Positions 5,880-62,138 are shown, numbered from the stretch's first letter. The stretch is 64,000 bases of DNA from Parcubacteria group bacterium (GCA_041659505.1 JBAZYF010000003.1:22026-86025), one strand, 5' to 3'. Numbers and translations are program-made. Notes: generated by a model not told the origin, from the letters alone.

Positions 5880-5904
5880 AGTATTATTCTAGCCTTAAAG
5901 CCTA

Positions 5905-5946: not shown

Positions 5947-5964
5947 AGTCCTGACTTCGCAGGG

Positions 5965-6606: not shown

Positions 6607-6608
6607 AT

Positions 6609-7508: not shown

Positions 7509-7523
7509 AGATTTTTTAATTTA

Positions 7524-7688: not shown

Positions 7689-7700
7689 TGTTTCGCAAAA

Positions 7701-18478: not shown

Positions 18479-18486
18479 ATAGTTTT

Positions 18487-19584
18487 TTAGACTCCAATAC
18501 GGAAAAGTCTTCCTAAAAATCCGCCAATACCCGGAGCGGTTTTAATCTGCCACTCATCATCAATAATTTCTGCGGGAGATTTTTTCGAATCACTAAATCC
18601 TATATTTGAATAAGTTTGTTTTAATTGTTCTGGGTTATAGCCTTCTTTCCATGCGTCTCTGACTTCGCGCCTGAAAGTACTCTCGGCAGTTATGCCCTTT
18701 TGTCCGCCCGAAGAAGAGTCTGTTTGGGGCGTTTGCTTTTTAATATAATCCATCTCCGATTCAAGTTGCACAGCCAAGTCTCCGGTGTAACCAAGACGAG
18801 TTGGGTCGGAAACATTTTGACCTATAAGCCGTTGCGCAGTGGCACGCATAGTCGAATCAGGTTCCAATCCTTGCTCAATACGTGCCGATACTCTTTCTCC
18901 GGTTGTGCCGCCTCCATTTTTCGCTCGCTGGTTAGCATCCTGCAATTTCAACATAAATTCCATTTCCCAATGTTGCTCATTGCTTTGCTTATCCAATTCC
19001 GATTTGATTAAGTCCTGATAATCACTCATCTGCTTTGTGAGATTAGCAAGATTATATTTTAGATCTTCGACTTCACGTTCTTTTTCGGCAGTTTCTGTGG
19101 CAACTTTTTTAGTCACCTCATCAAGATTGGTATTGTAGCTACCTGCCAAACTATTTCTCTCGTCGACAAAATTATTAATTTTAGAATTAGCCAATCGTTC
19201 GATTTCGGACGATTCCCCTGTAATAGTTGCAGCTGAATAATATGGATTGAGCCGAGTTTTACTAACCGATTCATCGCGAATTCCTTTTTCGCTGGCAATC
19301 TTAGAATCAGTATCTGCGATTTTTATTTTGATATCTCCCAATCCCTGTTTGTTATATTCCTGATCATAGCGATCGGTATAATAATTTTTGAGCGTGCTCT
19401 GAGCCTTATCGATTTTTTTCTGAACAGTATTGATTTTATTTTTGAGAGAAGAAAAATCATATCCAGCCGGAGCACTAGCCATGTTTGATGCGGGTGCTGA
19501 CTGGGAGCTGATATTTTTGCCTAATTGCTCCATTTGTTGGCGAAACCCATCCCAGTCTATATTTGTTACGCTGTTATCTGCCAT
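18487..19584 (-). CDS. Phage coiled-coil protein, hypothetical
   Basis: 365-aa ORF. Long charged heptad-like stretches. Confidence 0.4.
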   Translation of the reverse strand: MADNSVTNIDWDGFRQQMEQLGKNISSQSAPASNMASAPAGYDFSSLKNKINTVQKKIDKAQSTLKNYYTDRYDQEYNKQGLGDIKIKIADTDSKIASEKGIRDESVSKTRLNPYYSAATITGESSEIERLANSKINNFVDERNSLAGSYNTNLDEVTKKVATETAEKEREVEDLKYNLANLTKQMSDYQDLIKSELDKQSNEQHWEMEFMLKLQDANQRAKNGGGTTGERVSARIEQGLEPDSTMRATAQRLIGQNVSDPTRLGYTGDLAVQLESEMDYIKKQTPQTDSSSGGQKGITAESTFRREVRDAWKEGYNPEQLKQTYSNIGFSDSKKSPAEIIDDEWQIKTAPGIGGFLGRLFRIGV

Positions 19585-19588
19585 ATAT

Positions 19589-19804
19589 TTAAATATTCAC
19601 TTTTTTGTTTGCCATTATCTTTCCCGTTTTCAAATCAAAAGTATATTCCTTGGCAGGATCAAGACCGTACCTATGAAATCTACCAAGGAGATACGCTTGC
19701 TTTTGCGCTTCCAGCGCCTGTGCGATAAGCGTATGCTGATGAATCATTTCCTGTCGTTTTCGAATTTCTTCAAGATCCGTTTTGTCTAATTTTTTTGCGA
19801 ACAT
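19589..19804 (-). CDS. Small phage hypothetical protein
   Basis: 71-aa ORF tightly packed between neighbouring genes. Confidence 0.3.
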   Translation of the reverse strand: MFAKKLDKTDLEEIRKRQEMIHQHTLIAQALEAQKQAYLLGRFHRYGLDPAKEYTFDLKTGKIMANKKVNI

Positions 19805-19845
19805 AAAATTAAAATTATTTTTATTAAGGTTTGACCATCTATTTT

Positions 19846-20955
19846 TTAGATATCATCATACCAGGCCACTCCATGCCAGCTGTAGCCGTTATAGATCATC
19901 AGTCTGCCACCAGATCCCATGTCATCAGGATTATTCTCCCAGTACATCTGGCCTTTTACCGGATCATCGGGCTGATTGCTTCCAATGCGCATTGATGTAA
20001 GAATATCGACGAAGCCTCCGCCGACGGCATTATTTCCATAGAGGCGCATAATATCACTTCCGCTTGATGCTTTGAAAAAAATACGATCATTGGACGTAGT
20101 GTCAATGACGAGCGGACGATTTCCTGAAGTATCAATCCATATTCGAGCATATCCATTTGCTCCGTCGTCGAGCATAAGTCCGTGTCCTGGGCCAGCCTGA
20201 AGTCCATAGATAGAAACACCATTAATCTGGCGCAGATAGCCAATGCGTATTCCGCCATATGGAGTAGCCAGATATCCAGCCGAAGTCAGATTGATCGTTC
20301 CAGCTGTAACCTTATCCGCACAGACATTAGCGATTTTAGCATTGTCAATCGCGAGATTGGCGATCTTGGCGTTGGTGACAGCCAGATCCTGAATTTTTGC
20401 GGCACTTACCGCTAGATTATCAATGTTAGCGTTTTGCACTTCCGCCAAACCAATTTTAGCCGAAGTGATTTGCCCATTACCGATTTTGGCATTAATGATT
20501 GCGCCATCGACTATTTTTGCTGAGCTAATGATGGCATTTCCCAGATGCGCGTTCTGAATCACTCCGGTACCGATGTGTGCGCTGATAATTACTGCTGTAT
20601 CGATTTGAGCCGACAATGTTACCACAGCTTCGGATTGAATAAGCTTTGAAGCATTGACCGCTCCGTTTTTTATTTTGGCCGTGGCAACAGCCGCATTGGC
20701 CAATTTCTGTTCAGTAACTGATAATGCATCAAGGTGCTGACTAAGTATGGCGCTATCAATTATCTTGTCGGAACTCACTGATTCATCCGCCAAAGCCGTT
20801 GTCCCGACAGCCCCTGATTTTATCTGAAGCGAATCAATTGATGAAGGAGCAAGCAAGGGAGAATTATCTCCATCGTGAGTATGCAGGGGAACTTCCGGAA
20901 AAGGTTGATCATCCACTTCCTGGTTGCCAAAAATTTTTTGCAAAAAATCGCTCAT
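19846..20955 (-). CDS. Phage tail fiber protein
   Basis: Tandem xAxIxNAKI / AKIxNxA repeats (tail-fibre repeat type). Gly-rich C-terminal domain. Confidence 0.7.
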   Translation of the reverse strand: MSDFLQKIFGNQEVDDQPFPEVPLHTHDGDNSPLLAPSSIDSLQIKSGAVGTTALADESVSSDKIIDSAILSQHLDALSVTEQKLANAAVATAKIKNGAVNASKLIQSEAVVTLSAQIDTAVIISAHIGTGVIQNAHLGNAIISSAKIVDGAIINAKIGNGQITSAKIGLAEVQNANIDNLAVSAAKIQDLAVTNAKIANLAIDNAKIANVCADKVTAGTINLTSAGYLATPYGGIRIGYLRQINGVSIYGLQAGPGHGLMLDDGANGYARIWIDTSGNRPLVIDTTSNDRIFFKASSGSDIMRLYGNNAVGGGFVDILTSMRIGSNQPDDPVKGQMYWENNPDDMGSGGRLMIYNGYSWHGVAWYDDI

Positions 20956-20962
20956 GATTTTT

Positions 20963-22405
20963 CTATAAAATGCCTACCGGCTCGAAATAAGTACTGGCCG
21001 CCACGATCTCGGGCGTGTCGTTTCCCGACGGGTGCAGATCAAAAGCCAGCTCAAAAGTCTCACCTTTACCTTTTTCCTCGTCTTCCTCATCACCGGTTTC
21101 AATCGTGAAAACTGTTTTCGTATTTCCTTCTTTATCGAAACAATCCGCACCGTCTTCCAGATATGCCTGTTTCCAATCGCCCTGCTCATTGATGCGGTAA
21201 TATGTTTTTATCCAACATTGAGCGGGAATGGGTCTGGTCAGCAATTTTATATGTCGGAATCCTTTTTGTAGTTCTGGTTCGCCAGCATCAAAGACTAATC
21301 CTTCATATCTGGCATCAGTTTTATTTTCAGTATCAACCGTGTCTATCCCGTATGTCGAACCGTCCTTCCAGGATAAGAATATCTGGTCCGTATACATCGT
21401 CACCGCGCCTATTTCCACGTCAGTCATTTTTCCGTGAGACGGAATATATTCCAGATTCAATGAATATGGCTCGTTCTTGCTCAATCGTCCGTAGGAATAT
21501 AATCCGCATTTATCCGAGCCCGTTACTCCGAAAAGGGCGATGCCTTTCTGGTTGGTCACTGCTCCAGGATTCACCCACCCGCCTCCGGGAAACGCTTTGA
21601 AACGCAGTATATTTACCGTGTCCCAATAATAGAGTCCACCACTGATGCCAGCCTGCACGATGATAAAATCTGTTTGGATCATGGCATTGATTCCTTTTTC
21701 GGCGATCATTCTCCTCAGAATCCACGAGGGTTGCTGTTTGTCCCACGTCCACATCCAACCTTCTTCTATTTTGTCGCCCTTGGTCGAGCCGATGATGGCG
21801 ATCTGATCCTGGGGCAGAATAGCTTTCGTTCGGTTGCCGGCGATGATATCCAATGCCTGGTTATTGAAATTTCCTTCGTAATCAATAAGCGCGATGTAGC
21901 GTCCGTCGCAAATCTGCAAAACTCCGACCGCCATAGTCATCGTGTGCCAGGAAGGATCACCATTCAAACTTCCCACCGTCTGGACATCAGTGCTCCAATT
22001 TCCAGCCAGAGGAATGCGCTTCAGTTTGGTTTCGGTCGCCCAATATAAATACGGGATATAACTTTCTGATCCGTTATTATTCGTGTACTCGTCCGCCCCG
22101 CTTATTCTTCCGTCAGGATCCGAATAAACCAGAGACCAAGCAGAAGTCAGAGAATCTTTGCGATATATTTTTCCCGTATTCCCGAAACCGTACAGCTTGC
22201 CATTGGAAGCCGGAACGAAAAACAGAATGAGGTCAATAACAACATCTCCCGAATCTTTTTTGAGTCCCTGATTGCATTTCATCGTATCCGCTCCATTTCT
22301 AATATCAAGACTATGTCCGAAACGAAATGCACCGGCAACGCCTTTATAAACATCATCCGCGATACCACCACGAAAACCTTTTATTCTGTACGCATTAAGC
22401 CCCAT
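20963..22405 (-). CDS. Phage structural protein (tail or baseplate candidate)
   Basis: 480-aa ORF in the tail region. Confidence 0.4.
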   Translation of the reverse strand: MGLNAYRIKGFRGGIADDVYKGVAGAFRFGHSLDIRNGADTMKCNQGLKKDSGDVVIDLILFFVPASNGKLYGFGNTGKIYRKDSLTSAWSLVYSDPDGRISGADEYTNNNGSESYIPYLYWATETKLKRIPLAGNWSTDVQTVGSLNGDPSWHTMTMAVGVLQICDGRYIALIDYEGNFNNQALDIIAGNRTKAILPQDQIAIIGSTKGDKIEEGWMWTWDKQQPSWILRRMIAEKGINAMIQTDFIIVQAGISGGLYYWDTVNILRFKAFPGGGWVNPGAVTNQKGIALFGVTGSDKCGLYSYGRLSKNEPYSLNLEYIPSHGKMTDVEIGAVTMYTDQIFLSWKDGSTYGIDTVDTENKTDARYEGLVFDAGEPELQKGFRHIKLLTRPIPAQCWIKTYYRINEQGDWKQAYLEDGADCFDKEGNTKTVFTIETGDEEDEEKGKGETFELAFDLHPSGNDTPEIVAASTYFEPVGIL

Positions 22406-22408
22406 AGT

Positions 22409-23065
22409 TTATTGGTTGAAATCTTGCGGATTACTGTTTTTATACAAGAAGCGCGAGCTGGTCGCCTGTCCGATATATCCGGCTTCTCCAATCTCTTCGT
22501 CTTGCCGGTCTTTTATCTGCTGAAGAATGGCGGTGGCTTCCATGATCTGCTTGTCGGCTTCCCCGCTCCGGTTCGGTTCTTTTTTGAGGCAGATGCCAAG
22601 CGCGAATTTCACAATCGCTTCATCCATCTCTTCTGGCGTAACTGGTTCATCGGTATCATTGACCAGCGGAATGAGTCGCCGACGATAATAGATATCGATA
22701 ATTTTTCCGTCTTCCACGGGTGTCGGTTTAATCAGATATTGATCGCCTATGAGGCAGCACACGAATTCCCACAAATGATTGCCACTTTGATAGTTCTCGA
22801 TGCTCGTTTTCACATATTCCTGACCGTCTATTTTCAGAAACATCAATCCGCCTGGTTTGTAATCGAAAGGCAGAAAATATGCCTCGACATCTTTTTCGGT
22901 CAGCTGGGTCGAATGATGATTGATAAAATTCCATCTGGTGAAAGTGCAGGCGCGAACGATTGATTTATTGATCCATCTTTTTTTGTCCGTCTCACTCCAA
23001 AATCCGGTCGCCTTGGCCGCCGACATGCGTGCATTGAGATCCTGTAGAAATTCTTGTAATTGCAT
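22409..23065 (-). CDS. Phage hypothetical protein
   Basis: 218-aa ORF, contiguous in the operon. Confidence 0.4.
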   Translation of the reverse strand: MQLQEFLQDLNARMSAAKATGFWSETDKKRWINKSIVRACTFTRWNFINHHSTQLTEKDVEAYFLPFDYKPGGLMFLKIDGQEYVKTSIENYQSGNHLWEFVCCLIGDQYLIKPTPVEDGKIIDIYYRRRLIPLVNDTDEPVTPEEMDEAIVKFALGICLKKEPNRSGEADKQIMEATAILQQIKDRQDEEIGEAGYIGQATSSRFLYKNSNPQDFNQ

Positions 23066-23069
23066 AATG

Positions 23070-24764
23070 TTAAGGAATAAGTTGGCCGGTGGTCCGGTAG
23101 CGTTTTATATACTCCATAAGATTGTCACCCGGACAATCGGTTGCGTCCGGAACCTCCCTGTGTCCGAGCACCCGTTCTTTCGGAATGCCACGCTCTTTTC
23201 TTATTTTGTCGAGCAGTTTTTGAAGCGTGGCCAGCTGTTCAGAACTCGGCTGTTCATTTCCGCTTGTCGGATGAAAATTTCCGCACACGGCGATGCCGAT
23301 CGAGCGGTAGTTCATCTTTTCGGTGTCGGCGTGCGCTCCGATCTTGTTTTCCGGCCGACCAGGAATGTGCGTCCCGAGTCCGTCCATCGCTCCCGCGATC
23401 CAATGATGATAAGCTATATCTCCCCAACCGATGCCAATATGATTATTTCTGATAGTGAAATATCTAGTGGAATCACGTGGCGTCGCCGTGTGATGCACAA
23501 TAATAAATTCCGGGTAGTTGGCCTTGTCATATTTTGGCGCGTCTTTTTTCGCCCAGCGAAAGGTGCGAAGCGTATCCCATACAACCACCAGTTTGACTGC
23601 GAATTCTCCATTGTTCTTGGCATAATCCCAAGGTAACTTATATTGCCCGCCCCACGACGAGTAGTTTTCCAGCACCAGGCCAAGATTGCTGGAAGTCGTC
23701 CAGCCCTCACGATCGACGATTTCCTGAACAATTTCCTTTATATCTGGCGATTCATAAACACTGTTAGCCGACCAGTGGATTCCGACAAACGTGCCGTTGA
23801 CCGTTTCGCCGATTGTCCATTCAACCTGCGCTTTTGTTTTGGTTCGCGTAGACGGTCGATTTGATCCGTTTGCGACGAATGGCGGTGCATTGTCTTCCGC
23901 GAAACCTTTTATAAGAAGATTGGGGAAGCGATTATTCTGATCCGCTTCAGTAAGAAGAAGATGGGCTCCAACGATGTTCGCGTAGCGGGGGATATTTAGC
24001 GCACTGAATATAAATCCACCCTCATTGACCGATATGCCGTCATGACCAAGCGTGATGACGTTTCCGGTCGGACTTGATTGCCATGAAGACTTATCCGTTT
24101 CCACACCGTCACGATCCGTGCCGGCAATCGTACCAATACTGACATTCATCACGGTCGTATATAAAATTTCCAACTCCGCTCCGTAATTTTTTCCTTTACT
24201 GAGGTCGTAGCATGTCTCAGCCTGATTCGTTGCTGATCCGTTGTCTTCGATTGTCAACGCCAGAGAATTACCCGCTTTCCATCCGACCTGCGCCACGATT
24301 TCTTCGATCAAAAGTTTCAGGTTCGGAGTCTGCGTCCATTCGTGAACTTCCCATTTTTTGACGATGTGCCAAGGCACGCTGTTTACGGTTTTTGTCCGCT
24401 GGCTTGGCCGGGAAGTTTGCGTGAACGGCTTGGTGTCAGTTTCTTTTATTCCTTTTATAATCAGCTTCACATCCGGATCCGCTAAATCAGTAACTGCCGG
24501 ACGGATTCTGAGCCGCGCCAAAACTATTTTTGAATTTCTTGGAATGTCAATGTGTCTGAAGCGAAATGCGCCGGAATATAATAAACCGCTAACATTCCCG
24601 AAAGAAATTACGTTTCCGGCATTGCCGACACCATTCCATGCCACTGCATCCTGTTCGCGCCCATCATCGACAGTTTCCGCTACCGTTTTTTTAATTTTGG
24701 CAATATAATTCATCGACATTTTTATGCTTTGCGAAGAGCGATGAGCGGAACCGGCAAACTCCAA
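23070..24764 (-). CDS. Virion-associated peptidoglycan hydrolase: structural N-terminus with a C-terminal Amidase_2 domain
   Basis: C-terminus contains IIVHHTATPRDS...GIGWGDIAYHHWI...IGAHADTEK...DCPG, an Amidase_2/PGRP signature. Sits within the tail gene block. Confidence 0.65.
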   Translation of the reverse strand: MEFAGSAHRSSQSIKMSMNYIAKIKKTVAETVDDGREQDAVAWNGVGNAGNVISFGNVSGLLYSGAFRFRHIDIPRNSKIVLARLRIRPAVTDLADPDVKLIIKGIKETDTKPFTQTSRPSQRTKTVNSVPWHIVKKWEVHEWTQTPNLKLLIEEIVAQVGWKAGNSLALTIEDNGSATNQAETCYDLSKGKNYGAELEILYTTVMNVSIGTIAGTDRDGVETDKSSWQSSPTGNVITLGHDGISVNEGGFIFSALNIPRYANIVGAHLLLTEADQNNRFPNLLIKGFAEDNAPPFVANGSNRPSTRTKTKAQVEWTIGETVNGTFVGIHWSANSVYESPDIKEIVQEIVDREGWTTSSNLGLVLENYSSWGGQYKLPWDYAKNNGEFAVKLVVVWDTLRTFRWAKKDAPKYDKANYPEFIIVHHTATPRDSTRYFTIRNNHIGIGWGDIAYHHWIAGAMDGLGTHIPGRPENKIGAHADTEKMNYRSIGIAVCGNFHPTSGNEQPSSEQLATLQKLLDKIRKERGIPKERVLGHREVPDATDCPGDNLMEYIKRYRTTGQLIP

Positions 24765-25309
24765 TCAGTTGAGTTGTCTGACGGAAAATTAACTGGCAGC
24801 GCGCCATAAGTCTGAGTAACAGCGTAACCGAGAAAAGGCGTACCGGAGAGGCTGTTGTCAAGTCCCAAAAATGTGGCCAACGCATCAGCGGACGGAATTG
24901 CAGCGGCGACCAATGACGCAGTGTCCTGCCCTATCAGCGCGAGCCAATAAAGTTTCCCTCCTTTTAAAGTAAGATCAACTACTAATTCTTTGAGGCCGAT
25001 AGTGTTGACGACGACTTCTCCTGCATCAAGTTTGAGCACACCCGGATAAACACTTCCATCTCCCTTATCTTCATAAACGCCAAGACGGACACGCGGCGTG
25101 GTGCCGGTAGCCGCTGTACTGATGCGAATCGCAATCCTGTCGAACTTCATTGTTTTCGGAACGAAAAATGGAAAAGCACGAAGAGAATTAGCTGAAGTTA
25201 ATGCTTGCGTTGTGATCGTACCACCCGTAAGAAACGACCCGAAATATCTGCCCGCCTTTTTTATTCGGAGGAATGAAAAGTCTCCTTTTTGTGGAATGAA
25301 CTCAGCCAT
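24722..25309 (-). CDS. Phage hypothetical structural protein
   Basis: 195-aa ORF. Confidence 0.4.
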   Translation of the reverse strand: MAEFIPQKGDFSFLRIKKAGRYFGSFLTGGTITTQALTSANSLRAFPFFVPKTMKFDRIAIRISTAATGTTPRVRLGVYEDKGDGSVYPGVLKLDAGEVVVNTIGLKELVVDLTLKGGKLYWLALIGQDTASLVAAAIPSADALATFLGLDNSLSGTPFLGYAVTQTYGALPVNFPSDNSTDWSLPVPLIALRKA

Positions 25310-25315
25310 AAATAA

Positions 25316-25609
25316 TTATTGTTCTACGATTATTTCGACTTTGTCCCCGCTTATCTCGGCGTCTATGTACACCTTGTTTGCGTTGCCGATGCCAAGCTTT
25401 ACCGCTTCGCCCGACTCCAACGTGAACTTTCCAGCCTGAGCTTGTGCTGCGGATTCTCCGACCTTGATCGCTCCCCGGTTCGTGCGCTTGGCTTTAATCA
25501 CAAGCGTGCATCCTTCTCCAACAACGATCTCAGGAAGCTGAACAGCCACACCTGCGACAGCTACTGTCGCCTCGTTCACGGTGAATTTTGATTTGCTTTC
25601 TATTGGCAT
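25316..25609 (-). CDS. Phage hypothetical protein
   Basis: 97-aa ORF. Confidence 0.35.
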   Translation of the reverse strand: MPIESKSKFTVNEATVAVAGVAVQLPEIVVGEGCTLVIKAKRTNRGAIKVGESAAQAQAGKFTLESGEAVKLGIGNANKVYIDAEISGDKVEIIVEQ

Positions 25610-25657
25610 ATCTTTGTTTGCTTAATGGTAATTATTCGACCTTTAATTACCAGACAC

Positions 25658-26092
25658 TTAAAACTTCGCTTGTTTATTTTTCGACTTTTCTTTTGTTACT
25701 GCTTCATCTCCTATCGAGAGTCCGGCTCCTTCTTCTTTGCCTTGAATCGACATTTCCCGGCGTTTCAATTCCTCTTCCTTGGCTTTTAGTTCCGCTTCTC
25801 TTTCAGCCAGCGATCTCGTGACCAGCGCCGAAGTCACTTCCTTGGTGACTTCCTGATAATCGATGCCAGCGAACGGGGAATTGTCCAGGAACTCCTGTTC
25901 CTGTAGATCTTTCGTTTCATAGATGCCGTTTTTGAATTCAATCGTTTTTCCCTGTCGCGTCACTGCAATTCCATTAATCACTTCCGTGACAGTCGGAATC
26001 ATCACGATGCTGTAGTGATGTCCGTAGCGCGTAGCGTAGCGCTTGGCTTTCTCCTTTGATTTTTCCAGCGTTGATGTTTTGTTCTTTGCCAT
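25658..26092 (-). CDS. Phage hypothetical protein
   Basis: 144-aa ORF. Confidence 0.35.
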   Translation of the reverse strand: MAKNKTSTLEKSKEKAKRYATRYGHHYSIVMIPTVTEVINGIAVTRQGKTIEFKNGIYETKDLQEQEFLDNSPFAGIDYQEVTKEVTSALVTRSLAEREAELKAKEEELKRREMSIQGKEEGAGLSIGDEAVTKEKSKNKQAKF

Positions 26093-26243
26093 ACGAATTT
26101 GTTGAGAATTTATTTTTTATACTTGCCGCGGGTCGACCTTTATATCCCGCGGAAACCCTCAAGGGCTTTCCACTTGGTCAGGCGGATTTGGAAAGCATGT
26201 CCGTCCGACCAAGACTTGAAGGATTATTAAACTTAAAAAACTA

Positions 26244-27422
26244 TCAGGAAAACTTGACGACAGCATGACGTTCCGGCTGTTCCATCTGCAGACCGCATTC
26301 CGTCAAATACTCGTTGACATTAGAATCTTCTCCTGGTGCCTGTCGGTTGGTAAGCAGTTTCGTATCGCGATTGGAAAGATACCGATATGTCAAAGCTTCC
26401 ATATCCAGACCCACCGCGCTCTTGCCATACAAATCTCCCGTCAGTAGATCATGTTTCAAAATATTAAGCGTACCGTGCGGAGAAACATATTTTACGATGC
26501 TCAATCCAAAAGTTTTTTCACCCTGCAAAACCTGAAGTTTGTCATGCGCAAAGCTACTGAGCTTATCTAAGACATACCCGGAAGAAAGCAAATATTTTTC
26601 AGTGTTCCCGTGCGCGAACAAGGTTCGCAGAAAGCCGTTGAAGTCATCACGCGTCGCCACATTTGATGCAACCTGGTTGATTCTCTGAAAAATTCCGCCA
26701 GTAAATCTCTTCGGATGAACGCCACTCATAATCAATTCTTTTTTTCCAAACAGAAACGCTCTCTCGACATCGACCAAATGTTCGATGCCTTTTTTTCTGG
26801 TCTGATAATCAAAATCGCTTTCTTTCGTCCATCCTGTTGTATTTTTTGCGGTTTCGGTAATACCAATAGTCGTTCGGAAGATCTGGCAATAATTGATAGC
26901 TTCTGCGATAGCCGTGGCTTTTATCTCACGAATATTAGCTCCTTCTTCGTTAGCATTTCCGATGATCCAAACGACGTCGTTTAACTGAAGCAGACCGCCG
27001 CCCAATGATCCATCACCCACCTGACGCTGAAGCGTCAAAGTGTTGGTATTCACGTCCGTAACAATCATAACTTCTCCTGTCGGATTGCCTGTGCTCTGAG
27101 TCGACTTCACGCAAAGCAGAACATCCCCGATACTAAAATACAATCCGTTAGTCACAACCAGCGAAGTTGCCCCGCTCTGGTTAGCGGCAACAATATCTTC
27201 TCTCGCACCAAATTTGTCTTCGAACCATTTGAATTCGGGATCAGTTGTCTCTTTTTTCTTAAGCGCATCTCCTTGTTTAGTGACTGGATCTTTTCCAGCG
27301 TTAGTCAAGATAGCTAGAAGCGGATAACGGGCGACGTCCAGAAGTGAAATAACATCGGCTACGTCATATTTTCTGGTTACGCCCAAATTATCCGTTCCTC
27401 TTACCCCATTTATTGGAGGCAT
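26244..27422 (-). CDS. Putative major capsid protein
   Basis: 392-aa ORF immediately downstream of an acidic scaffold-like gene. Position-based call only. Confidence 0.4.
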   Translation of the reverse strand: MPPINGVRGTDNLGVTRKYDVADVISLLDVARYPLLAILTNAGKDPVTKQGDALKKKETTDPEFKWFEDKFGAREDIVAANQSGATSLVVTNGLYFSIGDVLLCVKSTQSTGNPTGEVMIVTDVNTNTLTLQRQVGDGSLGGGLLQLNDVVWIIGNANEEGANIREIKATAIAEAINYCQIFRTTIGITETAKNTTGWTKESDFDYQTRKKGIEHLVDVERAFLFGKKELIMSGVHPKRFTGGIFQRINQVASNVATRDDFNGFLRTLFAHGNTEKYLLSSGYVLDKLSSFAHDKLQVLQGEKTFGLSIVKYVSPHGTLNILKHDLLTGDLYGKSAVGLDMEALTYRYLSNRDTKLLTNRQAPGEDSNVNEYLTECGLQMEQPERHAVVKFS

Positions 27423-27472
27423 ATATTTATATCTTTAAATTGGTTAATTATAGGAGGTTCGACCTTCGGGGA

Positions 27473-28399
27473 TTAGACCCCCAATCCTCCTAAGGGACTT
27501 TTTGACCCGCTTGTTCCGAAGATTTGTTCGAGGCGGCGTTCTTCCGCACCCTTTTCTTCGCCGTGCGAGGTTGGAGCACCTGCTCCTCTCTCAACTTGCG
27601 CTTTGGCTTTTTTAAGACGAATCTTTTCGGTATCGGTCACTTTCGTATCTCCTTTAACTGTTCCGACGAATCCATCAACTTTTGCGCAAGCGTCTTTGAG
27701 TGAAATGACCGTTCCTTTTTGCGAAGCGGTATCAATCAAAGACAATACTAATTCCCGGTATTCTGCGCTGGTTTTGAGAAGCGGATGGTCTTTCTGCGCC
27801 TCTCTGATTTCCTGCGTTACAGAATCACGCATTTGACTCCGCGTGTCGTAGGTGTCGCTCACAATAGTTTTCACGGTCGACACCATCCATTCGGCAAACT
27901 GCTTCGGCGTCATTTTGGACAGCTCTTCATCCGAAGGCACCTCAACACCATTATCAGAATCCGCCTTTTCGTTTTCATCTTTTTTCTCGACTTTAGTGTC
28001 GGGAGTTTTTGTCTTGGTCAATTCTGTGTTTTCCAAATCTTCATACATCCGAATCACTTCTTCACGACTTTTGCCGTGCCATTTATCTTTGTCTTTGGAT
28101 TCTTCATCATCTTTCTTATTTTTCTCTGCTTCGGCTTCCTCCTCTGATTTTTCCTCCTCCTTATCCTCTTTATTTTTTTCCTCATCGTCATCCAATTCTT
28201 CTTCTTCGTTTTTCTCATCCTCTATTTCTTTCTTATTGTCTTTATTTTCCTCTTTTTTCGACTCATCATCTTCATTATTTTTCTCGTCATCTTCCTTGGA
28301 TTTATTGTCCTTTTCTTCCTCTTTTTCTTCGGTTTCCGTTTCCTCTTTCGAATCAGCGTTGAGAAGCGTATCAAGCTCCTTTTTTCGATCTTTATTCAT
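27473..28399 (-). CDS. Highly acidic E/D/K-rich protein, scaffold-like
   Basis: 308 aa. The N-terminal 170 aa are low-complexity EEKDNK repeats. Lies between portal-like and capsid-like genes. Confidence 0.45.
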   Translation of the reverse strand: MNKDRKKELDTLLNADSKEETETEEKEEEKDNKSKEDDEKNNEDDESKKEENKDNKKEIEDEKNEEEELDDDEEKNKEDKEEEKSEEEAEAEKNKKDDEESKDKDKWHGKSREEVIRMYEDLENTELTKTKTPDTKVEKKDENEKADSDNGVEVPSDEELSKMTPKQFAEWMVSTVKTIVSDTYDTRSQMRDSVTQEIREAQKDHPLLKTSAEYRELVLSLIDTASQKGTVISLKDACAKVDGFVGTVKGDTKVTDTEKIRLKKAKAQVERGAGAPTSHGEEKGAEERRLEQIFGTSGSKSPLGGLGV

Positions 28400-28478
28400 A
28401 AATGCTGTTATAATTAATTTTTATTTTCTAAAATTGGGCTCGACCTTATCCCAATATTTTTCCAATTTATGAGCCACT

Positions 28479-28760
28479 CTAGTATTCTCTGTTCATATCG
28501 CTGGCCGCTTCGTCCTTTTCCCTGATGGCGGTTTCGACTAGAGAGAGAATTTTTTCATAAGCGTTCGCGTTGGCTCTATGCTGGAGATAATCGGCAGCGA
28601 TTTCTTCAGAAGTTTTTCCGATAATTTCGAATTCCCGCAGTTCCGCATATTCGATTACTAACTCTTCTCTGATTTTCACTTCCAGCCACTTCCAACCAGA
28701 AGTTCTGGTCATCTCCAGCACGGCTAATCCTGCTTCGAATTTTTTCTCATTGCTTTCCAT
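28479..28760 (-). CDS. Phage hypothetical protein
   Basis: 93-aa ORF. Confidence 0.3.
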   Translation of the reverse strand: MESNEKKFEAGLAVLEMTRTSGWKWLEVKIREELVIEYAELREFEIIGKTSEEIAADYLQHRANANAYEKILSLVETAIREKDEAASDMNREY

Positions 28761-28765
28761 AATCT

Positions 28766-29113
28766 TTATTGTGGCTGATCATCAGCTGTCGGTTCCGGTC
28801 CTGCGGGAATATCCATTTGCGGGCCTCCGTAGAGACCGCCCAATTGACTATTGCCGTCTTCACTAGCCAGCAAATCCTGCAAAGTTGCCACTAAACTCTC
28901 AACCACGTCATGAAAGCTTGATTTTCCAGACTGATAAATTTCTTTTGCAACGCTTATGACACTTTCCACTTTTTTCCATTTTTCATCTGCGTCTCCAGCA
29001 TTCACGACATTTGTTTTTTGATCTTTGAAACCAATCTTTCTATCATTTTCCTGATTTATATCTTGGTTCATATTTTCATCCGCAGAATTTTTTTCTATTG
29101 GTTTATTTTGCAT
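28766..29113 (-). CDS. Phage hypothetical protein
   Basis: 115-aa ORF. Confidence 0.3.
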   Translation of the reverse strand: MQNKPIEKNSADENMNQDINQENDRKIGFKDQKTNVVNAGDADEKWKKVESVISVAKEIYQSGKSSFHDVVESLVATLQDLLASEDGNSQLGGLYGGPQMDIPAGPEPTADDQPQ

Positions 29114-29134
29114 ATAAATATTTATGCTAATTAA

Positions 29135-29335
29135 TTATGATTTAGCTTCGACCTTTTCAATTGTAAATTTTAATTTGTGCCCCAAATCAATCTTGGAAGA
29201 TTCTTCTAGGGAAAGGTAGATTGTGTGCACCCTGCCTTGGCCTTCCTGCAATGACACAATGCAATCACCTCCGCTAAGTGTTTTACTCAAAACAGTAACC
29301 GTGACGGATATTGCCAATGAATTTGTTTTTGCCAT
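29135..29335 (-). CDS. Phage hypothetical protein
   Basis: 66-aa ORF. Confidence 0.3.
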   Translation of the reverse strand: MAKTNSLAISVTVTVLSKTLSGGDCIVSLQEGQGRVHTIYLSLEESSKIDLGHKLKFTIEKVEAKS

Positions 29336-29347
29336 AAATTTATTATT

Positions 29348-31210
29348 TTATTTTATTTTTGAGCCTATAAATGGAATGCGTGATAATATTTTTTTCATAA
29401 AACTTGGCTGTGGTTGTGGTGTCGCTGGTAACGATTTTTCAGGTAAAGCTTTTGGTTCGGTTATAACCGGCAATTCTTCTGTTTTTCTTTCCTGCTCTTT
29501 TTGCGCCAGTTCATCGGGTTCTTCGCCAAGCAATATTGCTCGATAAGCTTCTTTATCCATTTCCTCAAGAATCATTTCCTGTATCACCCGCTTGCGTTTT
29601 TTCCATTGTTTGAATTCATCGATATTATTCGGATCAGGTTTGTCCTGAGCCACTAATTTATCGTAAAGAAGTAGTACTTGGTTCAATCTTGTTTGCTGAT
29701 CGGGCGGTATAATCGGATCAACTGCCACTACGGCATCGACTTTTATTTTCTTATCCGCCGACGTAAACTCTTTAAAACTCACATCATCTCCAACTACGCG
29801 ATAAAGTTTATTCTCTTCAATAAATTCCTGATTCATTTCAATCAAGATGTTTGCGAGCCGGGTGAGTGTTTCCGAAAGATTTTGAGCGAATGAGCTCAGG
29901 CGCAGATTGCTTTGTCCGATAAGCATAGCCACTTTGCCAAGTGGCTCACTGGATGATTTCGGCACACCCTGAACATACTCAGAAATAGCCAGCGTCTTTT
30001 CAATCTCCTCATGAAGCATTCTTTCTTCGTTTACTCCCATCAAAGAAATGTCGGGCAAGCGCTCCACGACCACATCATCCATTTTACGAAGCTCCCATTT
30101 CGCTCCCGGCGCGAAAATAATATCGTTTTTCGAGATGCCGGAATCCTTACGAATTTTAATGACTGGATCAAGCATTAAAATGACGTCGTCCATGCGCTGA
30201 TTCCGAAGATCAGCAATTTCCACAATAGTCGTCTCAACCGGTTCAATGTGTCCAATAGCCCACAACTCCCAGTTCACTTCGTGATCATAAAGATTAAGAA
30301 AAATACGGCCGTGATTTACTTCTTGATAGGGATTTTCATCGTTGCGCATCAGAATTTCACGATTACCCAATGTAATCAGTTTTCCTTCCTCGAAGTCATA
30401 GCATTCCCACACTTCAATCAACTTTTCTCGTTCATATTTTTCGCTGGATATCTTTATGACTGAATCGCCTTGCACTCTTGATTCGGCGCTTTGAATTTGT
30501 CCCATCTTTTTGATATTGATGTCATAGCGTTCCTGCTTCCAGTCATCTATTTGTTTTGGCTGGAGAAAATTTACGTTTTCGTAAAGAGCATTATCCCCTC
30601 GCGCTTTTTCCTCACGCTCGATTTTTGACTTTGATTTGAGAATACGTCGAATGAGCCATGGACAATCTTCTTCTAAATCTTCAGTTTCAGGAGCGGGCAA
30701 AATATCCCACAAATCGCAAATCGCCAGGAATGGATCATCGTGATCAATGCTCTCATCGGTAAGCCAACTCACCATAGCGATACCATTACCGAAAGTTATT
30801 GCTGATTTCACCCACCGCGGAAGCTTTTTTTGAAGCTTCATAACGTCGAAATCATAATTGACAAGATCATCCCACGCTTGCACTGATTTTGAATTGACAT
30901 CTTTTTTTTCACGCGGAAGCACTCTCGTCTTGCGTTTCGCTGTTATCATGCGAGAAGCCACTGTTTCCACAATCTGAAACGCGATCGGTGGCATAAGACG
31001 TGTCTTGTAGGCATAGTTCATTTTTTCCTGATAAGCACGATACAGTTTATACATACGCAACCATTTTGCACGATATGGCCGCAAATAGTTTTCCGCTCTC
31101 GTGAATCTCTTTTTCCATTTTTCAATGAGCGCTAATTCTTCACTAGACGGCGAATAAGTCTCATTACCCACGACCCCTTCTCTTTTAATTTTCGTAGTTA
31201 CTTCCGCCAT
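29348..31210 (-). CDS. Putative portal (head-tail connector) protein
   Basis: 620 aa with no Walker A, so not a terminase. First gene of the structural operon. Size and position fit a portal. Confidence 0.45.
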   Translation of the reverse strand: MAEVTTKIKREGVVGNETYSPSSEELALIEKWKKRFTRAENYLRPYRAKWLRMYKLYRAYQEKMNYAYKTRLMPPIAFQIVETVASRMITAKRKTRVLPREKKDVNSKSVQAWDDLVNYDFDVMKLQKKLPRWVKSAITFGNGIAMVSWLTDESIDHDDPFLAICDLWDILPAPETEDLEEDCPWLIRRILKSKSKIEREEKARGDNALYENVNFLQPKQIDDWKQERYDINIKKMGQIQSAESRVQGDSVIKISSEKYEREKLIEVWECYDFEEGKLITLGNREILMRNDENPYQEVNHGRIFLNLYDHEVNWELWAIGHIEPVETTIVEIADLRNQRMDDVILMLDPVIKIRKDSGISKNDIIFAPGAKWELRKMDDVVVERLPDISLMGVNEERMLHEEIEKTLAISEYVQGVPKSSSEPLGKVAMLIGQSNLRLSSFAQNLSETLTRLANILIEMNQEFIEENKLYRVVGDDVSFKEFTSADKKIKVDAVVAVDPIIPPDQQTRLNQVLLLYDKLVAQDKPDPNNIDEFKQWKKRKRVIQEMILEEMDKEAYRAILLGEEPDELAQKEQERKTEELPVITEPKALPEKSLPATPQPQPSFMKKILSRIPFIGSKIK

Positions 31211-58956: not shown

Positions 58957-59264
58957 AGAAATAAAAAATTAACAATATTTTATTCTATTGTAGCAATAAA
59001 AATGTCGAGAAGCAATGGTGATGGGGGGCTGACGCCTTAATTTGATTCATTAAAATAAAAAGGTTATAATATAAATAACAATTCATTGCCTAAACCCCAC
59101 AAAAATGTGGGGCATGGCGCTAAAACCAACCAAGGTAGTAAGCTCCTCGTCCAGAGCACCTTGGTTGGTCGTGCATCGAAAGGTGTGCGGGTGACCTGAA
59201 AGGGTCATCGCTGGCGGGGAGCTTTTTGTATTCTCACCAGCAAAAATAATCTTAGAAACGGGAA

Positions 59265-60311
59265 TTATTTCAGCCAAAACCAATATTGATTCAGAAGTTC
59301 CTGTTCCAAATCGTAAGCATCGGCGTGAGAAAGAACGCCTAGATACGATTGCAGACACTGGTTCAGTGATTTCTCATTTCTTTTGCTTGCTTTATATTCC
59401 AGGATGCGTTCTTGAAGTTTTTTAAAAATGCGCTTTTTCGTCTTTGTCCGCAACGCCCGACAATGCGGAAGAGTTACGTAGCCGAGAAAATCTATTCCTT
59501 GTTTGCATTTTCTGATACTAACTTTTCCAGGATGAAGCTTCAGCGAAAGTTTTTCTTCGATAAACCGACCAACAGGATTGAGGATATTCGACAAAAACTC
59601 CTGACTATTACTGACGATCACGAAATCATCGGTATAGCGGGCATAGTGTTTTATTTTCAACTCATGCTTTACAAACTGGTCGAGTTCGTTCATGTAGACA
59701 TTGGCGAAAAGCTGGGAGGTAAGATTGCCAATCGGCACGCCTCTGCTACTGAAAATGTCTGATTGATCGGAAGAAAAACTTTCTACGATTTCTTTCAAGA
59801 GCCACCGCACATTCTCGTCCTTTATTCTCTTGAATAAAATTCGCAGCAGAATGGCATGATCGACCGTATCAAAAAATTTTTTGATATCGCACTTTAAAAC
59901 GAAGCACGGTCTCGAATAATTTTTGCTTTCTTTTTCGATCATTTTTTCCAAGGCCGTAACACCCTTGTGCGTCCCCTTCCCGATGCGACAGGAAAAAGAA
60001 TGTGAGATAAAAGACTGCTCGAAAATCGGGCTAAGCACTGAAAAAATGGCATGATGCAATACTCTGTCCTTCACTTCTGCTTTGTGAATATGTCGCTGTT
60101 TCGGATCACGGATATAAAATGACGAATAGCTCTGGTGTTTGTATGTGCGACTCCTCAGCTCTTCGCGAAGCTGAAAAATATTTCGCTCCAATTCCCATTC
60201 GAACTTCAAGACATCCGCCTTTTTTCGCTTACCCTCCTTGAAGTTGTCCCAGGCCAAAAACAGGTTTTCCAGCGAAATTATTTCTTCAAAAATATCTTTG
60301 TAGGTTTTCAT
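59265..60311 (-). CDS. Diversity-generating retroelement (DGR) reverse transcriptase
   Basis: RT motifs FVLKCDIKKFFDTVDH and YARYTDDFVIV (YxDD). The motif PIGNLTSQ (IGxxxSQ) is diagnostic of DGR RTs, as opposed to QGxxxSP in group II intron RTs. TR/VR pair lies adjacent. Confidence 0.85.
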   Translation of the reverse strand: MKTYKDIFEEIISLENLFLAWDNFKEGKRKKADVLKFEWELERNIFQLREELRSRTYKHQSYSSFYIRDPKQRHIHKAEVKDRVLHHAIFSVLSPIFEQSFISHSFSCRIGKGTHKGVTALEKMIEKESKNYSRPCFVLKCDIKKFFDTVDHAILLRILFKRIKDENVRWLLKEIVESFSSDQSDIFSSRGVPIGNLTSQLFANVYMNELDQFVKHELKIKHYARYTDDFVIVSNSQEFLSNILNPVGRFIEEKLSLKLHPGKVSIRKCKQGIDFLGYVTLPHCRALRTKTKKRIFKKLQERILEYKASKRNEKSLNQCLQSYLGVLSHADAYDLEQELLNQYWFWLK

Positions 60312-60331
60312 AATTCAATAACAATAAAAAT

Positions 60332-60682
60332 ATGGATGAATTTGACATTCCGATCTTCAAAAAAATCTGCGATATGTATAAAAATTTCTACAGTTTCAGG
60401 AATTCCGTTCCCAAACAGGACCGTTATACACTTTGGCAAAAATGCGAGAATATTTTGCTGGAAATATTGGAAAGTATATTACTTGCCAGCCAAATGCCTA
60501 AAAAAGAAAAGCTACCGATTCTGGAAAAAACAAGCCTACAGCTTAACTCGTTCAGGATTTTTGTCCGTCTGGCCAAAGAAGTTCGCGCCATTGATACTAA
60601 AAAATACATCTTACTGCAAGAGAACACAGATGAGATTGGAAGAATGTTGGGTGGCTGGATACGCTCCAATCATTCTGATTAA
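60332..60682 (+). CDS. avd: DGR accessory variability determinant (Avd), transcribed divergently from the RT
   Basis: 116 aa. C-terminus EIGRMLGGWIRSNHSD parallels Bordetella phage Avd ...EVGRILGSWIAR. Predicted helical bundle. Confidence 0.8.
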   Translation: MDEFDIPIFKKICDMYKNFYSFRNSVPKQDRYTLWQKCENILLEILESILLASQMPKKEKLPILEKTSLQLNSFRIFVRLAKEVRAIDTKKYILLQENTDEIGRMLGGWIRSNHSD

Positions 60683-60688
60683 GACACA

Positions 60689-60720
60689 AAAGACATCCCC
60701 CTCTGGATGTCTTTTTGTTT
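60689..60720 (+). terminator. Terminator downstream of avd
   Basis: aaagacatcc-ccctct-ggatgtcttt followed by ttgttt. Confidence 0.5.
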
Positions 60721-60723
60721 TGA

Positions 60724-60850
60724 GAAGAGACTTCGGGAGAAATCCCGAGGCGGAACCGAACTGCTTGTTGACATTGTTCGTCCAGTTAGTGTTGAAGTTG
60801 AGGTCGCCGTCGTTCCAGTTGAAGTTGGGCGCGTTCACGAACTCACCATC
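60724..60850 (-). repeat. DGR template repeat (TR), 127 bp, read on the minus strand
   Basis: Matches the VR at 114/127 positions. All 13 mismatches are A in this copy (minus strand) against G/T/C in the VR. Translating it gives the Asn-rich NFNWNDGDLNFNTNWTNNVNKQFG (AAC codons). Confidence 0.85.
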
Positions 60851-61259
60851 GCCGTCGGGATTTTGCTTCTACCCGTCCATTATCACCAGGAGTTGAAATT
60901 TACTGTCTGAATAAATCAGGCCTATATTCTCTCCTCCTTGAATTTTATTCGGGAGTAGTTCTTTTTATCGAACATCTCCACCAGGTAAAAGCAAGCAGTA
61001 TCTCCTCAAGATAACACACTTCTTCCAGCCGTAGCCGAATAGAACTCCGGTTATTTTCCTTGAAGAAAGAGAGGGCGACAGCTATCCGTGGACAACTGCT
61101 CATTGGCCCGCTCATTCAGAAGTATATCAGAACAGCTTATTCTAGCAAATGAAAGAGGCTACCCACAAGTGGATAGCCTCGATTTTGAACCGACCGCCTT
61201 CGGCGGAAAGTTCAAGGAATAAAAGGCACGAGAGGGACAAGGTTTCGAAATTTCGAGTT

Positions 61260-62138
61260 TCAATTCTGCGGGAGAAATCCCGAGGCGGAACCGAACTGCT
61301 CGTTGACATCGCTCGTCCAGCTAGCGCTGAAGTAGAGGTCGCCGTCGCCCCAGTCGAAGTAGGGCGCGCCCACGAACTCACCATCGCCGTCGGGAGCATA
61401 CTCGTCGCCCGCACAATCGATGTGGAGCTGTTCCCACTGAATCTCACGTTCGGGGTGGGTCAGCAACATGATTCCGATTGCAAAGGCTCCGAGTCCAAAC
61501 TCATTGACAATGAAGACCTCACGTCCCCGGCGCACCGAACGACCCTTATGACGGAGACCGAACTGGGCCGGAACGACGAGGATGTCGAAGTCCTTCTGCT
61601 CGTCGCCGAGCTTCTGGAACATCTTCACCGTCTTGACATGCTGCCTGAGGTACTCCGCTCCGAGATGGCCGTCACGGTAGTTGTAGAACTTCCGCTTGGA
61701 CGCGATCATCGCGAGAACCTTCTCGACCGCTTCGCCATACGTCGGTGCGAGCGTCTCCCACTTCGGAATAGCAAACCATCCTTCAGCGTTTGAGGGTAGC
61801 GTCTGCTCGGCGATCTTCTCATCGGCGAATCCGATGCCCGGGAATAACTGACGCAGGATGTTGGTCTGTTCCGTAATCCCCTTGACCTTGTAGCCCTTGG
61901 GGTACGTGTAGCTGGAACTGACTTCCTCGTCGGCGAACTGATTGGACACCGAAAGCTCTCTGATGGCAGTGATGATGCGAGCTTGAAACTCGTCGCCGTT
62001 TTCAATGAGTTTCTGGGTACCGTCCTTGTCTCCGAGAAGACCATCTGCAATTGCGCGATCAATGGCGTCTTCGGAAAACCGCTTGACTTGCTTCTTCTGT
62101 CCGTCTGTGATACCGGTGATCAATGTTTCCATTGTCAT
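61260..62138 (-). CDS. DGR target protein with C-terminal variable C-type-lectin/FGE-like fold
   Basis: 292-aa ORF with the VR at its extreme C-terminus. The W/G/D/Y-rich end is typical of CLec-fold DGR variable proteins. Confidence 0.8.
   Translation of the reverse strand: MTMETLITGITDGQKKQVKRFSEDAIDRAIADGLLGDKDGTQKLIENGDEFQARIITAIRELSVSNQFADEEVSSSYTYPKGYKVKGITEQTNILRQLFPGIGFADEKIAEQTLPSNAEGWFAIPKWETLAPTYGEAVEKVLAMIASKRKFYNYRDGHLGAEYLRQHVKTVKMFQKLGDEQKDFDILVVPAQFGLRHKGRSVRRGREVFIVNEFGLGAFAIGIMLLTHPEREIQWEQLHIDCAGDEYAPDGDGEFVGAPYFDWGDGDLYFSASWTSDVNEQFGSASGFLPQN
61269..61395 (-). repeat. DGR variable repeat (VR) at the 3' end of the target gene
   Basis: Encodes YFDWGDGDLYFSASWTSDVNEQFGSASGFLPQN. 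A GAAA-loop hairpin cgggagaaatcccg sits at its 3' end and is shared with the TR. Confidence 0.85.

Follow-up and report, generated by a model that had tools for sequence, protein, structure and literature searches.

A recently active diversity-generating retroelement of a Parcubacteria group bacterium, with a structured template RNA and a LOOT RNA beside its reverse transcriptase

How RNA recruits the reverse transcriptase (RT) and its partner protein Avd in diversity-generating retroelements (DGRs), and how the complementary DNA (cDNA) is primed, has been solved for one phage element only, with a scaffold that lies downstream of the template repeat (TR). The reference for this ribonucleoprotein is the DGR of Bordetella phage BPP-1, arranged mtd-avd-TR-brt (Handa et al. 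2018, PMC6182149; Handa et al. 2024, bioRxiv 10.1101/2023.10.23.563531). The phage RNA has an Avd-binding stem-loop just 3' of TR and, downstream of TR, a spacer of about 140 nt with the primer, the Thumb Ring and the RT-binding stem-loop (Handa et al. 2024, bioRxiv 10.1101/2023.10.23.563531). Homing in the Bordetella system involves a further element with a GC-rich stem of 7-10 bp and a 4-nt GRNA loop in the sense strand, found 4-34 bp downstream of the variable repeat (VR) and absent from TR, and a GAAA to CTTT swap of its loop abolishes homing (Guo et al. 2011, PMC3240598). The published survey of other DGRs covered only 40 nt upstream of TR. Within the candidate phyla radiation (CPR), architecture B3, TR-(avd)-RT, has been reported for 90% of DGRs (Wu et al. 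2018, PMC5758913), and a cellular clade restricted to Patescibacteria has been named 'DGR clade 2' (Roux et al., bioRxiv 10.1101/2020.04.01.020958). Here, we describe a DGR at positions 59265-62138 of a 64,000-nt stretch of DNA from a Parcubacteria group bacterium (GCA_041659505.1 JBAZYF010000003.1:22026-86025), hereafter the window, and relate its genes, its template RNA and its surroundings to these systems.

The element is a complete and recently active DGR. RT, Avd and a 292-aa target protein are all intact and TR and VR differ in an adenine-specific manner, in agreement with the preliminary description of this DNA as carrying a complete DGR. Its core consists of the following features, in window coordinates.

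59265-60311, minus strand: RT, the DGR reverse transcriptase (348 aa; RVT_1 92.7 bits, motifs PIGNLTSQ and YTDD)
60332-60682, plus strand: avd (116 aa; PF22296 bAvd), divergent from RT, C-terminal end EIGRMLGGWIRSNHSD
60734-60860, minus strand: TR, AAC-rich, translation NFNWNDGDLNFNTNWTNNVNKQFG
61269-61395, minus strand: VR, the final 127 nt of the target open reading frame (ORF) ahead of the codons QN-stop
61260-62138, minus strand: DGR target gene, 292 aa (290 aa from the second ATG), with an N-terminal helical part and a C-terminal variable domain

The repeats form a direct repeat of 130 nt at an offset of 535 (60731-60860 and 61266-61395). Within the 127-bp core, read on the minus strand, TR and VR differ at 13 positions and every one of these is an A in TR (11 A>G and 2 A>T, TR to VR). 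One extra A>C at either edge of the core (60861/61396 and 60733/61268) brings the tally to 15 of 15 differences at TR adenines. The 13 adenine-only differences claimed earlier were thus upheld when the alignment was tabulated per TR base, and the chance of all mismatches landing on A is about 3e-10 (hypergeometric). All substitutions occupy codon position 1 or 2 of the target ORF 61260-62138, the same two positions that hold 31 of the 32 TR adenines. VR ends 9 nt ahead of the target stop codon and the final 32 bp are identical between the repeats; the shared 3' segment that had been put at about 35 bp accordingly exists, at a length of 32 bp. A search of the 64-kb window for more copies revealed no further VR.

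Recent activity is documented by other assemblies of the same species. A metagenome contig from an independent sample (L040) is 99.68% identical to the window over 3700 bp, and 9 of the 12 differences in total are found within 31 bp of VR, all nine at positions whose TR base is A; the TR sequence is the same in both and the VR differs. A third VR allele is present in protein P0002, and the closest target proteins, P0001 and P0002, differ from the target of the window solely within VR. An NCBI metagenome-assembled genome (MAG) labelled 'Parcubacteria group bacterium' encodes RT, Avd, HNH and PheS proteins identical to those of the window, and lacks the exact target protein. The three same-species VR alleles differ at TR-A positions only, with TR and 3.6 kb of flank almost invariant, and this comparison of contigs and alleles (L040, P0002) shows ongoing diversification that is limited to VR. 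Two signs that might have counted against the preliminary description were looked for and not seen: the further copies, the L040 and P0002 alleles, vary at TR-A sites only, and RT has neither a frameshift nor a loss of YxDD, its ORF being intact and its catalytic motifs invariant. The assembly of another sample ends 81 nt past avd, at TR, as is expected of an assembler because TR belongs to a repeat with variable copies.

The two core proteins are recognisable. Profile searches of the three proteins recovered RT through RVT_1 and Avd through bAvd (63.6 bits against a cut-off of 40), with no Pfam or NCBIfam match for the target; the DGR motif IGxxxSQ (as PIGNLTSQ), the YxDD motif (as YTDD) and the recognisable Avd of the earlier account stand, and PIGNLTSQ and YTDD are invariant in 8 aligned relatives. 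Two sets of related loci were gathered, one of 37 loci in genomes that encode the target protein, the other of 80 metagenome loci that encode RT. In all 82 of the 82 loci in which RT is 51-71% identical and avd could be found, avd is divergent from RT, with a gap between the start codons of 0-42 nt (20 nt in the window). RT relatives at 45-71% identity are without exception placed within TR/avd cassettes. TR converges on the 3' end of avd in the related loci, all of their TR/VR pairs are adenine-specific, and in a few relatives the TR-avd-RT block is inverted relative to the target.

With avd between TR and RT and on the strand opposite both, which is the definition of B3, the element belongs to architecture B3. 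Its host is a Parcubacteria MAG and hence a member of CPR, which is typical of B3 without strictly defining it, and judging from host and relatives the element is most likely a member of the CPR-restricted 'DGR clade 2'. The preliminary description rightly placed avd opposite RT, TR and target and 20 bp from RT. Its statement that this is not the usual cassette holds only relative to the Bordetella phage, since B3 makes up 90% of CPR DGRs and the divergent avd is universal among the relatives; for this host the layout is not unusual. The core order TR-(avd)-RT, the avd on the opposite strand, the single adjacent target, the Parcubacteria/Patescibacteria host, the cellular rather than phage-borne setting and the adenine-specific substitutions are all shared with the CPR B3 DGRs of clade 2, from which the gene layout shows no difference. 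As a DGR the element is ordinary, its layout being already known as the CPR standard, and one more active example of a class known since 2017 will not surprise the specialist.

Some observations on this layout may be recorded here. The start codons of RT and avd stand back to back in the window (60312-60331) and in L024, L030, L032, L064-L071 and others, and in many loci they abut (0 nt). With this spacing the promoter of each gene must fall within its neighbour, and the two transcripts should be antisense to one another at their 5' ends. In the window, sites resembling promoters are found at 60500-60473 on the minus strand and at 60285-60314 on the plus strand. Close homologues of the CPR target or DGR are present in MAGs labelled as non-CPR, namely Gammaproteobacteria (L008, L024, L030), Bdellovibrionales (L022), Humimicrobiaceae (L013) and Limisphaerales (P0110), which would point to horizontal transfer or else to contigs binned wrongly. 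A more remote relative among the B3 DGRs, with an RT 46% identical, lies at 5520-8922 of the viral contig IMGVR_UViG_3300032024_000414 (L138) and has one TR (7218-7339) and two VRs (7605-7726 and 8699-8820) in tandem paralogous targets.

The sequence upstream of TR is where the element appears to depart from what has been described. About 250 nt ahead of TR are conserved in 11 of 11 genome loci, and in the window they form the 5' part of an apparent TR transcript with these features.

61121-61148, minus strand: promoter-like site for the TR transcript, TTGCTA-16-TG-TATACT (promoter scan; start site predicted)
60863-61108, minus strand: structured 5' domain of the TR RNA (covariation and minimum free energy (MFE) fold)
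61108-61074, minus strand: helix P1
61053-61012, minus strand: helix P2
61007-61001, minus strand: 5' strand of the long-range helix, GAGGAGA
61000-60995, minus strand: UACUGC of the 5' domain
60994-60983 with 60874-60863, minus strand: helix P3, which encloses P4 and P5
60979-60952, minus strand: helix P4
60938-60888, minus strand: helix P5
60722-60734, minus strand: strand at and immediately past the 3' end of TR, GAAGUC-UCUUCUC, which pairs with GAGGAGA-UACUGC of the 5' domain
60687-60717, no strand assigned: stem-loop between the converging TR and avd, stem of 11 bp with flanking A and T runs (terminator scan)

The -10 box of the TR transcript directly follows the target terminator and is conserved in place in 11 loci. 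A plain sequence profile found the 5' domain in 62 of the 72 RT loci with enough upstream sequence, always on the RT strand and at a median of 514 nt from the RT start. RNAalifold, applied to 40 non-redundant sequences, returned 5 helices with 68 pairs, 57 of which show compensatory changes, and by pair counts each helix reaches 91-100% pairing. Taken over all 81 pairs of the structure, the share of paired cells is 93.1%, compared with 41-49% when the partners are slid by 1-3 columns, and none of 500 shuffles reached the observed pairing. The MFE fold of the window sequence by itself reproduces all helices, including the one that spans TR (z = -3.74). The domain has no match to an Rfam family, even at E <= 10, and this structured leader of the template RNA is apparently undescribed. 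A 56-aa ORF at 60945-61115 was considered as a gene and rejected, as its frame is broken by stop codons in relatives (by reading).

The helix across TR joins GAGGAGA at 61007-61001 to UCUUCUC at 60728-60722, 5 nt past the TR/VR homology. All 7 of its 7 pairs (A5 alignment columns 141-147 / 464-471) show compensatory changes, and GAGGAGA:UCUCCUC in one subclade is replaced by GAGAUAG:CUAUCUC in the other. The helix continues, interrupted, as UACUGC opposite GAAGUC, where pair 150:462 is AU in 38 sequences and GC in 2. Since GAAGUC-UCUUCUC pairs with the 5' domain, TR is closed into a loop. A second B3 subclade with the same 5' domain and the same cross-TR helix was noted (L042, L044, L046, L047, L049, L053-L057, L072 and L080); its TR is different and shorter and ends in ..GVSSARNF, pointing to another target family, and since scaffold is shared where TR and target are not, the RNA scaffold would be older than the target association. 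Beyond the cross-TR helix, 16 nt past the end of TR, follows the stem-loop at 60687-60717, with compensatory changes in 10 of its 11 pairs; it probably ends transcription from both directions, that of the TR RNA and that of avd.

When the element is set against that of BPP-1, both have RT together with Avd, repeats subject to adenine mutagenesis, a target of C-type lectin fold whose gene carries VR at its 3' end, an invariant 3' segment common to TR and VR, and a stem-loop directly 3' of TR. They differ in that the avd of the window is inverted and placed between TR and RT, in the chromosomal location of the element, and in a target that by reading has no signal peptide. Of the parts of a phage-type scaffold, a stem-loop past TR and a helix across TR were both found, whereas the downstream spacer of about 140 nt was not: from TR to the end of the terminator there are only some 45 nt, after which comes antisense avd. 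With no room for a spacer downstream of TR, the bulk of the structure sits upstream, and the 5' strand of the cross-TR duplex, located about 140 nt from TR, is brought adjacent to it by P3. The window further differs from the phage in having no GRNA hairpin downstream of VR. From this anatomy we infer an RNA scaffold that is permuted relative to that of the Bordetella phage.

The following mechanism is proposed. Promoters and terminators would define four transcription units, for the target mRNA, a dedicated TR RNA, avd and RT. Going by the covariation, the TR RNA would run from the P1-P5 domain of about 250 nt through the 127-nt TR to the stem-loop or terminator, and GAGGAGA-UACUGC would close TR into a loop by pairing with the bases at its end. 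By analogy with the Bordetella ribonucleoprotein, RT and Avd may assemble on this scaffold, with the stem-loop 3' of TR as the putative counterpart of the Avd-binding stem-loop, the cross-TR helix as a candidate equivalent of the 'cPRT Stop' duplex, and the elements of the phage downstream spacer presumably supplied from upstream of TR. The enzyme is predicted to copy cDNA from TR with misincorporation opposite adenines; the cDNA would then replace VR at the 3' end of the target, an outcome that is seen in the VR alleles, and would recode about 13-20 residues on what is modelled as the ligand-binding face of the C-type-lectin-fold domain.

That the element is an active chromosomal CPR B3 DGR with a structured TR RNA of this kind we consider highly probable. 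A number of points weigh against it. The best NCBIfam match of RT is a model of group II intron RTs, far below its cut-off, in libraries that hold no DGR-specific RT model, and Avd scores 79.2 against the cut-off of 80 for NF033474 DivGenRetAVD, thereby falling 0.8 bit short. The covariation alignment was made by the sequence similarity of related loci, whose relatedness inflates the shuffle control; the slid control is fairer and still far lower than the observed pairing. The cross-TR helix is 85.8% paired and its register shifts in some sequences, and the stem-loop past TR may be a terminator only. Read-through of this stem-loop could let antisense-avd RNA provide spacer-like elements that would stand in for the 5' domain. 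The ends of the transcripts, the site of priming and the contacts made by the proteins are all predictions.

A second RNA is found on the other side of the cassette. The LOOT motif comes from a survey of 224 motifs and goes without discussion in the main text of that paper (Weinberg et al. 2017, PMC5737381). In the literature searched, LOOT is named in only two papers, one of them on RNA structure prediction. The window contains a copy 56 nt past the stop codon of RT and convergent with it.

59042-59070, plus strand: promoter of LOOT
59087-59209, plus strand: LOOT RNA (Rfam RF03000), 93.5 bits against a gathering score of 46.4, full length 1-121
To about 59228, plus strand: conserved 3' extension of LOOT, ..GGCGGGGAGCUUUUUG

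The copy is a full-length match to the Rfam motif, with the same four hairpins, two of them with GAAA loops; what sets it apart is that it and 13 related copies adjoin DGR cassettes. Besides the window, LOOT is present in 4 of 11 genome-derived DGR loci (L008 7020-7144, L017 5549-5678, L018 1622-1751 and L021 10864-10987) and in 9 of 80 metagenome RT loci, giving 14 DGR loci with the window included, compared with none of 26 target-only loci (Fisher p = 0.001 for enrichment at DGR loci, genome-derived loci). Where at least 4 kb of flank is available on both sides, 6 of 15 loci, the window counted, have a LOOT copy within that distance. Its orientation in the clade is constant, antiparallel to RT in all 14 loci (binomial p = 1e-4), though the side of the cassette on which it lies differs. 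The copies share the promoter, a 5' leader ACAAYUNAAU and a 3' extension GGYGGGGAGCUUUUUG, which lies outside the Rfam model. Apart from the window and the four genome loci, copies were noted in L043, L060, L081, L085, L091, L102, L104, L109, L113, L138 and L173. A search of viral contigs that was not conditioned on DGRs gave two solid copies, one of them 167 nt after the RT of the B3 DGR with two targets (L138), on the RT strand, and the other on a phage contig with no DGR in 12.8 kb (L173). An invariably antiparallel orientation is broken by the first of these and an invariable place beside a DGR is ruled out by the second. The linkage of LOOT to DGRs is statistically real, and neither obligatory nor exclusive. 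Complementarity between a LOOT loop and GAGGAGA, seen by eye in the window, was discarded as it is not seen in L021 or L008.

Other readings of the locus have to be weighed against the account given above. The element might be a relic, its TR/VR differences left by past activity of a DGR that no longer works; many database DGRs are degenerate (Wu 2018), and some related loci hold target genes or the 5' domain without RT (L033 and the 26 target-only loci). All ORFs of the window are intact with invariant catalytic motifs, however, and two other same-species assemblies carry different VR alleles, changed at TR-A sites only, with the 3.7 kb shared with L040 showing most of its differences inside 31 bp of VR, so that a relic is very unlikely. 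The conserved region upstream of TR might likewise have nothing to do with the template, being instead a small RNA of its own or belonging to the 3' part of the target transcript, given that it comes after the target gene in most loci. This reading is very improbable, for a terminator separates the target from the 5' domain and a -10 box stands ahead of P1; the inverted arrangements (L008, L032 and L036) keep the domain with TR-avd-RT and not with the target; P3 ends 2-4 nt ahead of TR; and a covarying helix ties the domain to bases just past TR.

The candidate functions of two further structures call for similar caution. In the preliminary description a hairpin at the shared 3' end of TR and VR, with a GAAA loop, was likened to the homing hairpin or cruciform of the Bordetella phage, and there is indeed a GC-rich inverted repeat of 5-6 bp with a 4-nt loop at both places (60733-60748 in TR, with a 6-bp stem, and 61268-61283 in VR, with a 5-bp stem); GAAA is the Bordetella loop sequence, and two or three central G-C pairs are possible in 15-18 of 27 relatives. 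The string cgggagaaatcccg is present only when the plus strand is read, though, and the strand of TR, VR and target has UCGGGA-UUUC-UCCCGA: the GAAA loop is antisense because TR, VR and target are read from the minus strand, and in Bordetella a CTTT loop kills function. The stem is shorter than 7-10 bp, it lies inside the homology and in TR as well, where the phage element marks VR only, and its bases encode the conserved residues SGFLP. Across 40 aligned related TR RNAs 75% of cells are paired and a single cell is compensatory; the segment is deleted in 13 of the 40, and about half of the other 27 cannot form the inner pairs. None of the three traits of a Bordetella-type hairpin, a position outside the homology, the stem with its GRNA loop and conservation in relatives, was found. 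The claim of a GNRA homing hairpin does not survive, a functional equivalent of the Bordetella element being very improbable here, and we conclude that the hairpin is incidental because its loop, stem length, position, coding role and poor conservation all differ from that element. A separate candidate, CCGCC-GAA-GGCGG about 80 nt downstream of VR, was rejected as homing hairpin, as it is absent in some loci, has unconserved loops and lies beyond 4-34 bp. LOOT, for its part, might be a functional accessory of this class of DGR, such as a trans-acting RNA that binds RT-Avd or a regulator of the cassette. The enrichment at DGR loci and the constant orientation in the clade speak in favour, as do its frequent position 23-170 nt from RT or the target gene and the one solid viral copy, of two, beside a B3 DGR RT. 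Against this, it is missing from 9 of the 15 long-flank loci, its position varies (after RT, before or after the target, up to 4 kb off), the L138 copy is on the RT strand, L173 has LOOT without a DGR, no consistent complementarity to the TR RNA is seen by eye, and LOOT and DGRs may both simply favour mobile or variable regions. An accessory role is on balance less likely than not.

The target protein belongs to a large family. At E <= 1e-3 it has 2686 homologues, forming 1761 clusters at 50% identity and mostly from Parcubacteria, Magasanikbacteria and other Patescibacteria; the best 120 of the 2686 are 61-98% identical. Neither Pfam, NCBIfam nor PDB gave a sequence match, and no family match is common to 68 diverse relatives. 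An AlphaFold 2 model built from diverse representatives, with a predicted local distance difference test score (pLDDT) of 95.6, supports a C-type lectin fold for the C-terminus, at the level of fold only; it replaced a model from 64 close homologues that was unusable (pLDDT 57.8). Of the CLec/FGE-type domain announced earlier, the fold thus holds in the model, and membership by sequence in the FGE-sulfatase, DUF1566 or curated CLec families does not. The target differs from the known C-type-lectin-fold DGR proteins (TvpA 2y3c, Mtd 1yu0) and FGE-like proteins in lacking a sequence match to FGE-sulfatase, DUF1566, Pfam or PDB, in an N-terminal helical half without an assigned fold, and in the unusual conservation of its family across CPR lineages, with 61-98% identity among the matches listed. 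No hydrophobic N-terminal segment is apparent when the sequence is read by eye.

The target gene is also set apart by its composition and by conserved flanks.

62304-62276, minus strand: target promoter TTGACA-17-TG-TAGGAT (promoter scan, 10/12 matches plus extended TG)
62245-62192, minus strand: hairpin or palindrome in the 5' untranslated region (UTR) of the target, 13-bp stem (inverted repeat)
61150-61259, minus strand: target 3' UTR with YCTTGR-type repeats, CCGCC-GAA-GGCGG hairpin and terminator (by-eye alignment of 31 loci)
61180-61155, minus strand: target terminator hairpin GAGGCTATCCAC..GTGGGTAGCCTC (terminator scan)

It has 56% GC and a third-position GC content of 0.71, whereas 33 other ORFs in the window average 0.39 +/- 0.07 and do not exceed 0.52; in its third positions A and T are both depleted. 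Across 42 loci the target genes have 49-66% GC (outlier L034 at 43%) in hosts of 33-57% GC, and RT and avd are host-like in composition, unlike the target gene. The promoter is strong and conserved, a TTGACA-N17-TGnTAnnnT box being aligned across more than 30 target loci, and inverted repeats like that of the 5' UTR occur at the same relative place in at least six others, L013, L014, L015, L018, L026 and L031. The 3' UTR, 90-110 nt past the stop codon, is conserved in about 30 loci, DGR-linked and orphan targets alike (for example L007 5986-6095 and L008 6853-6960), with 4-6 YCTTGR repeats at a spacing of 8-9 nt, often a small GC hairpin, and a terminator whose sequence, GGGGCTATCCAC..GTGGATAGCCCC, is conserved. 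YCTTGR occurs 3.6 times per 90 nt, compared with 0.41 in control windows (a nine-fold enrichment), and the repeat copy of the window is degenerate. A target kept at about 60% GC within genomes of lower GC, together with its conserved UTRs, bears on how target cassettes spread or are expressed.

Roughly two thirds of the genome loci contain a homologue of the target whose VR looks diversified, with no RT, avd or TR within 6 kb (target-only loci L003, L005-L007, L009-L012, L014-L016, L020, L022, L023, L025-L029, L031 and L033-L035). Such loci may represent targets that are remote or orphaned, or else fragmented assemblies. L033 has the full 5' RNA domain after its target and no recognisable TR, avd or RT, and fragments of the domain are retained in L020, L025 and L029.

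As for the wider neighbourhood, phage head, portal, tail-fibre and endolysin genes are found at about 15-31 kb of the window. This prophage-like block (~15000-31200), which encodes a major head protein, a portal/adaptor, a tail-fibre-like protein and an amidase/endolysin, shows no connection with the DGR. The two are separated by PheS/PheT and two-component genes, and with these housekeeping genes in between, the chromosomal location apart from the prophage that had been proposed is borne out. The HNH and Schlafen/AlbA_2 neighbours were ruled out as DGR accessories, being found in none of about 115 related loci.

The interest of the locus lies in its RNA anatomy and its LOOT neighbour, more than in the DGR itself. 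The structured upstream domain, the LOOT neighbour and the GC excess of the target are not described in the CPR DGR literature compared, Paul et al. 2017 standing outside that comparison. Taken as a single proposal, a permuted B3 scaffold in which an upstream five-helix domain of about 250 nt replaces the downstream spacer and clamps the 3' end of TR, with LOOT as a further RNA component or regulator, is speculative and on present evidence rather unlikely to hold in full. A CPR clade with a large covarying domain upstream of TR and almost nothing downstream is nevertheless naturally suited to testing which RNA elements are indispensable, and the link to LOOT, if true, would for the first time place an RNA family without known function in a genomic context.

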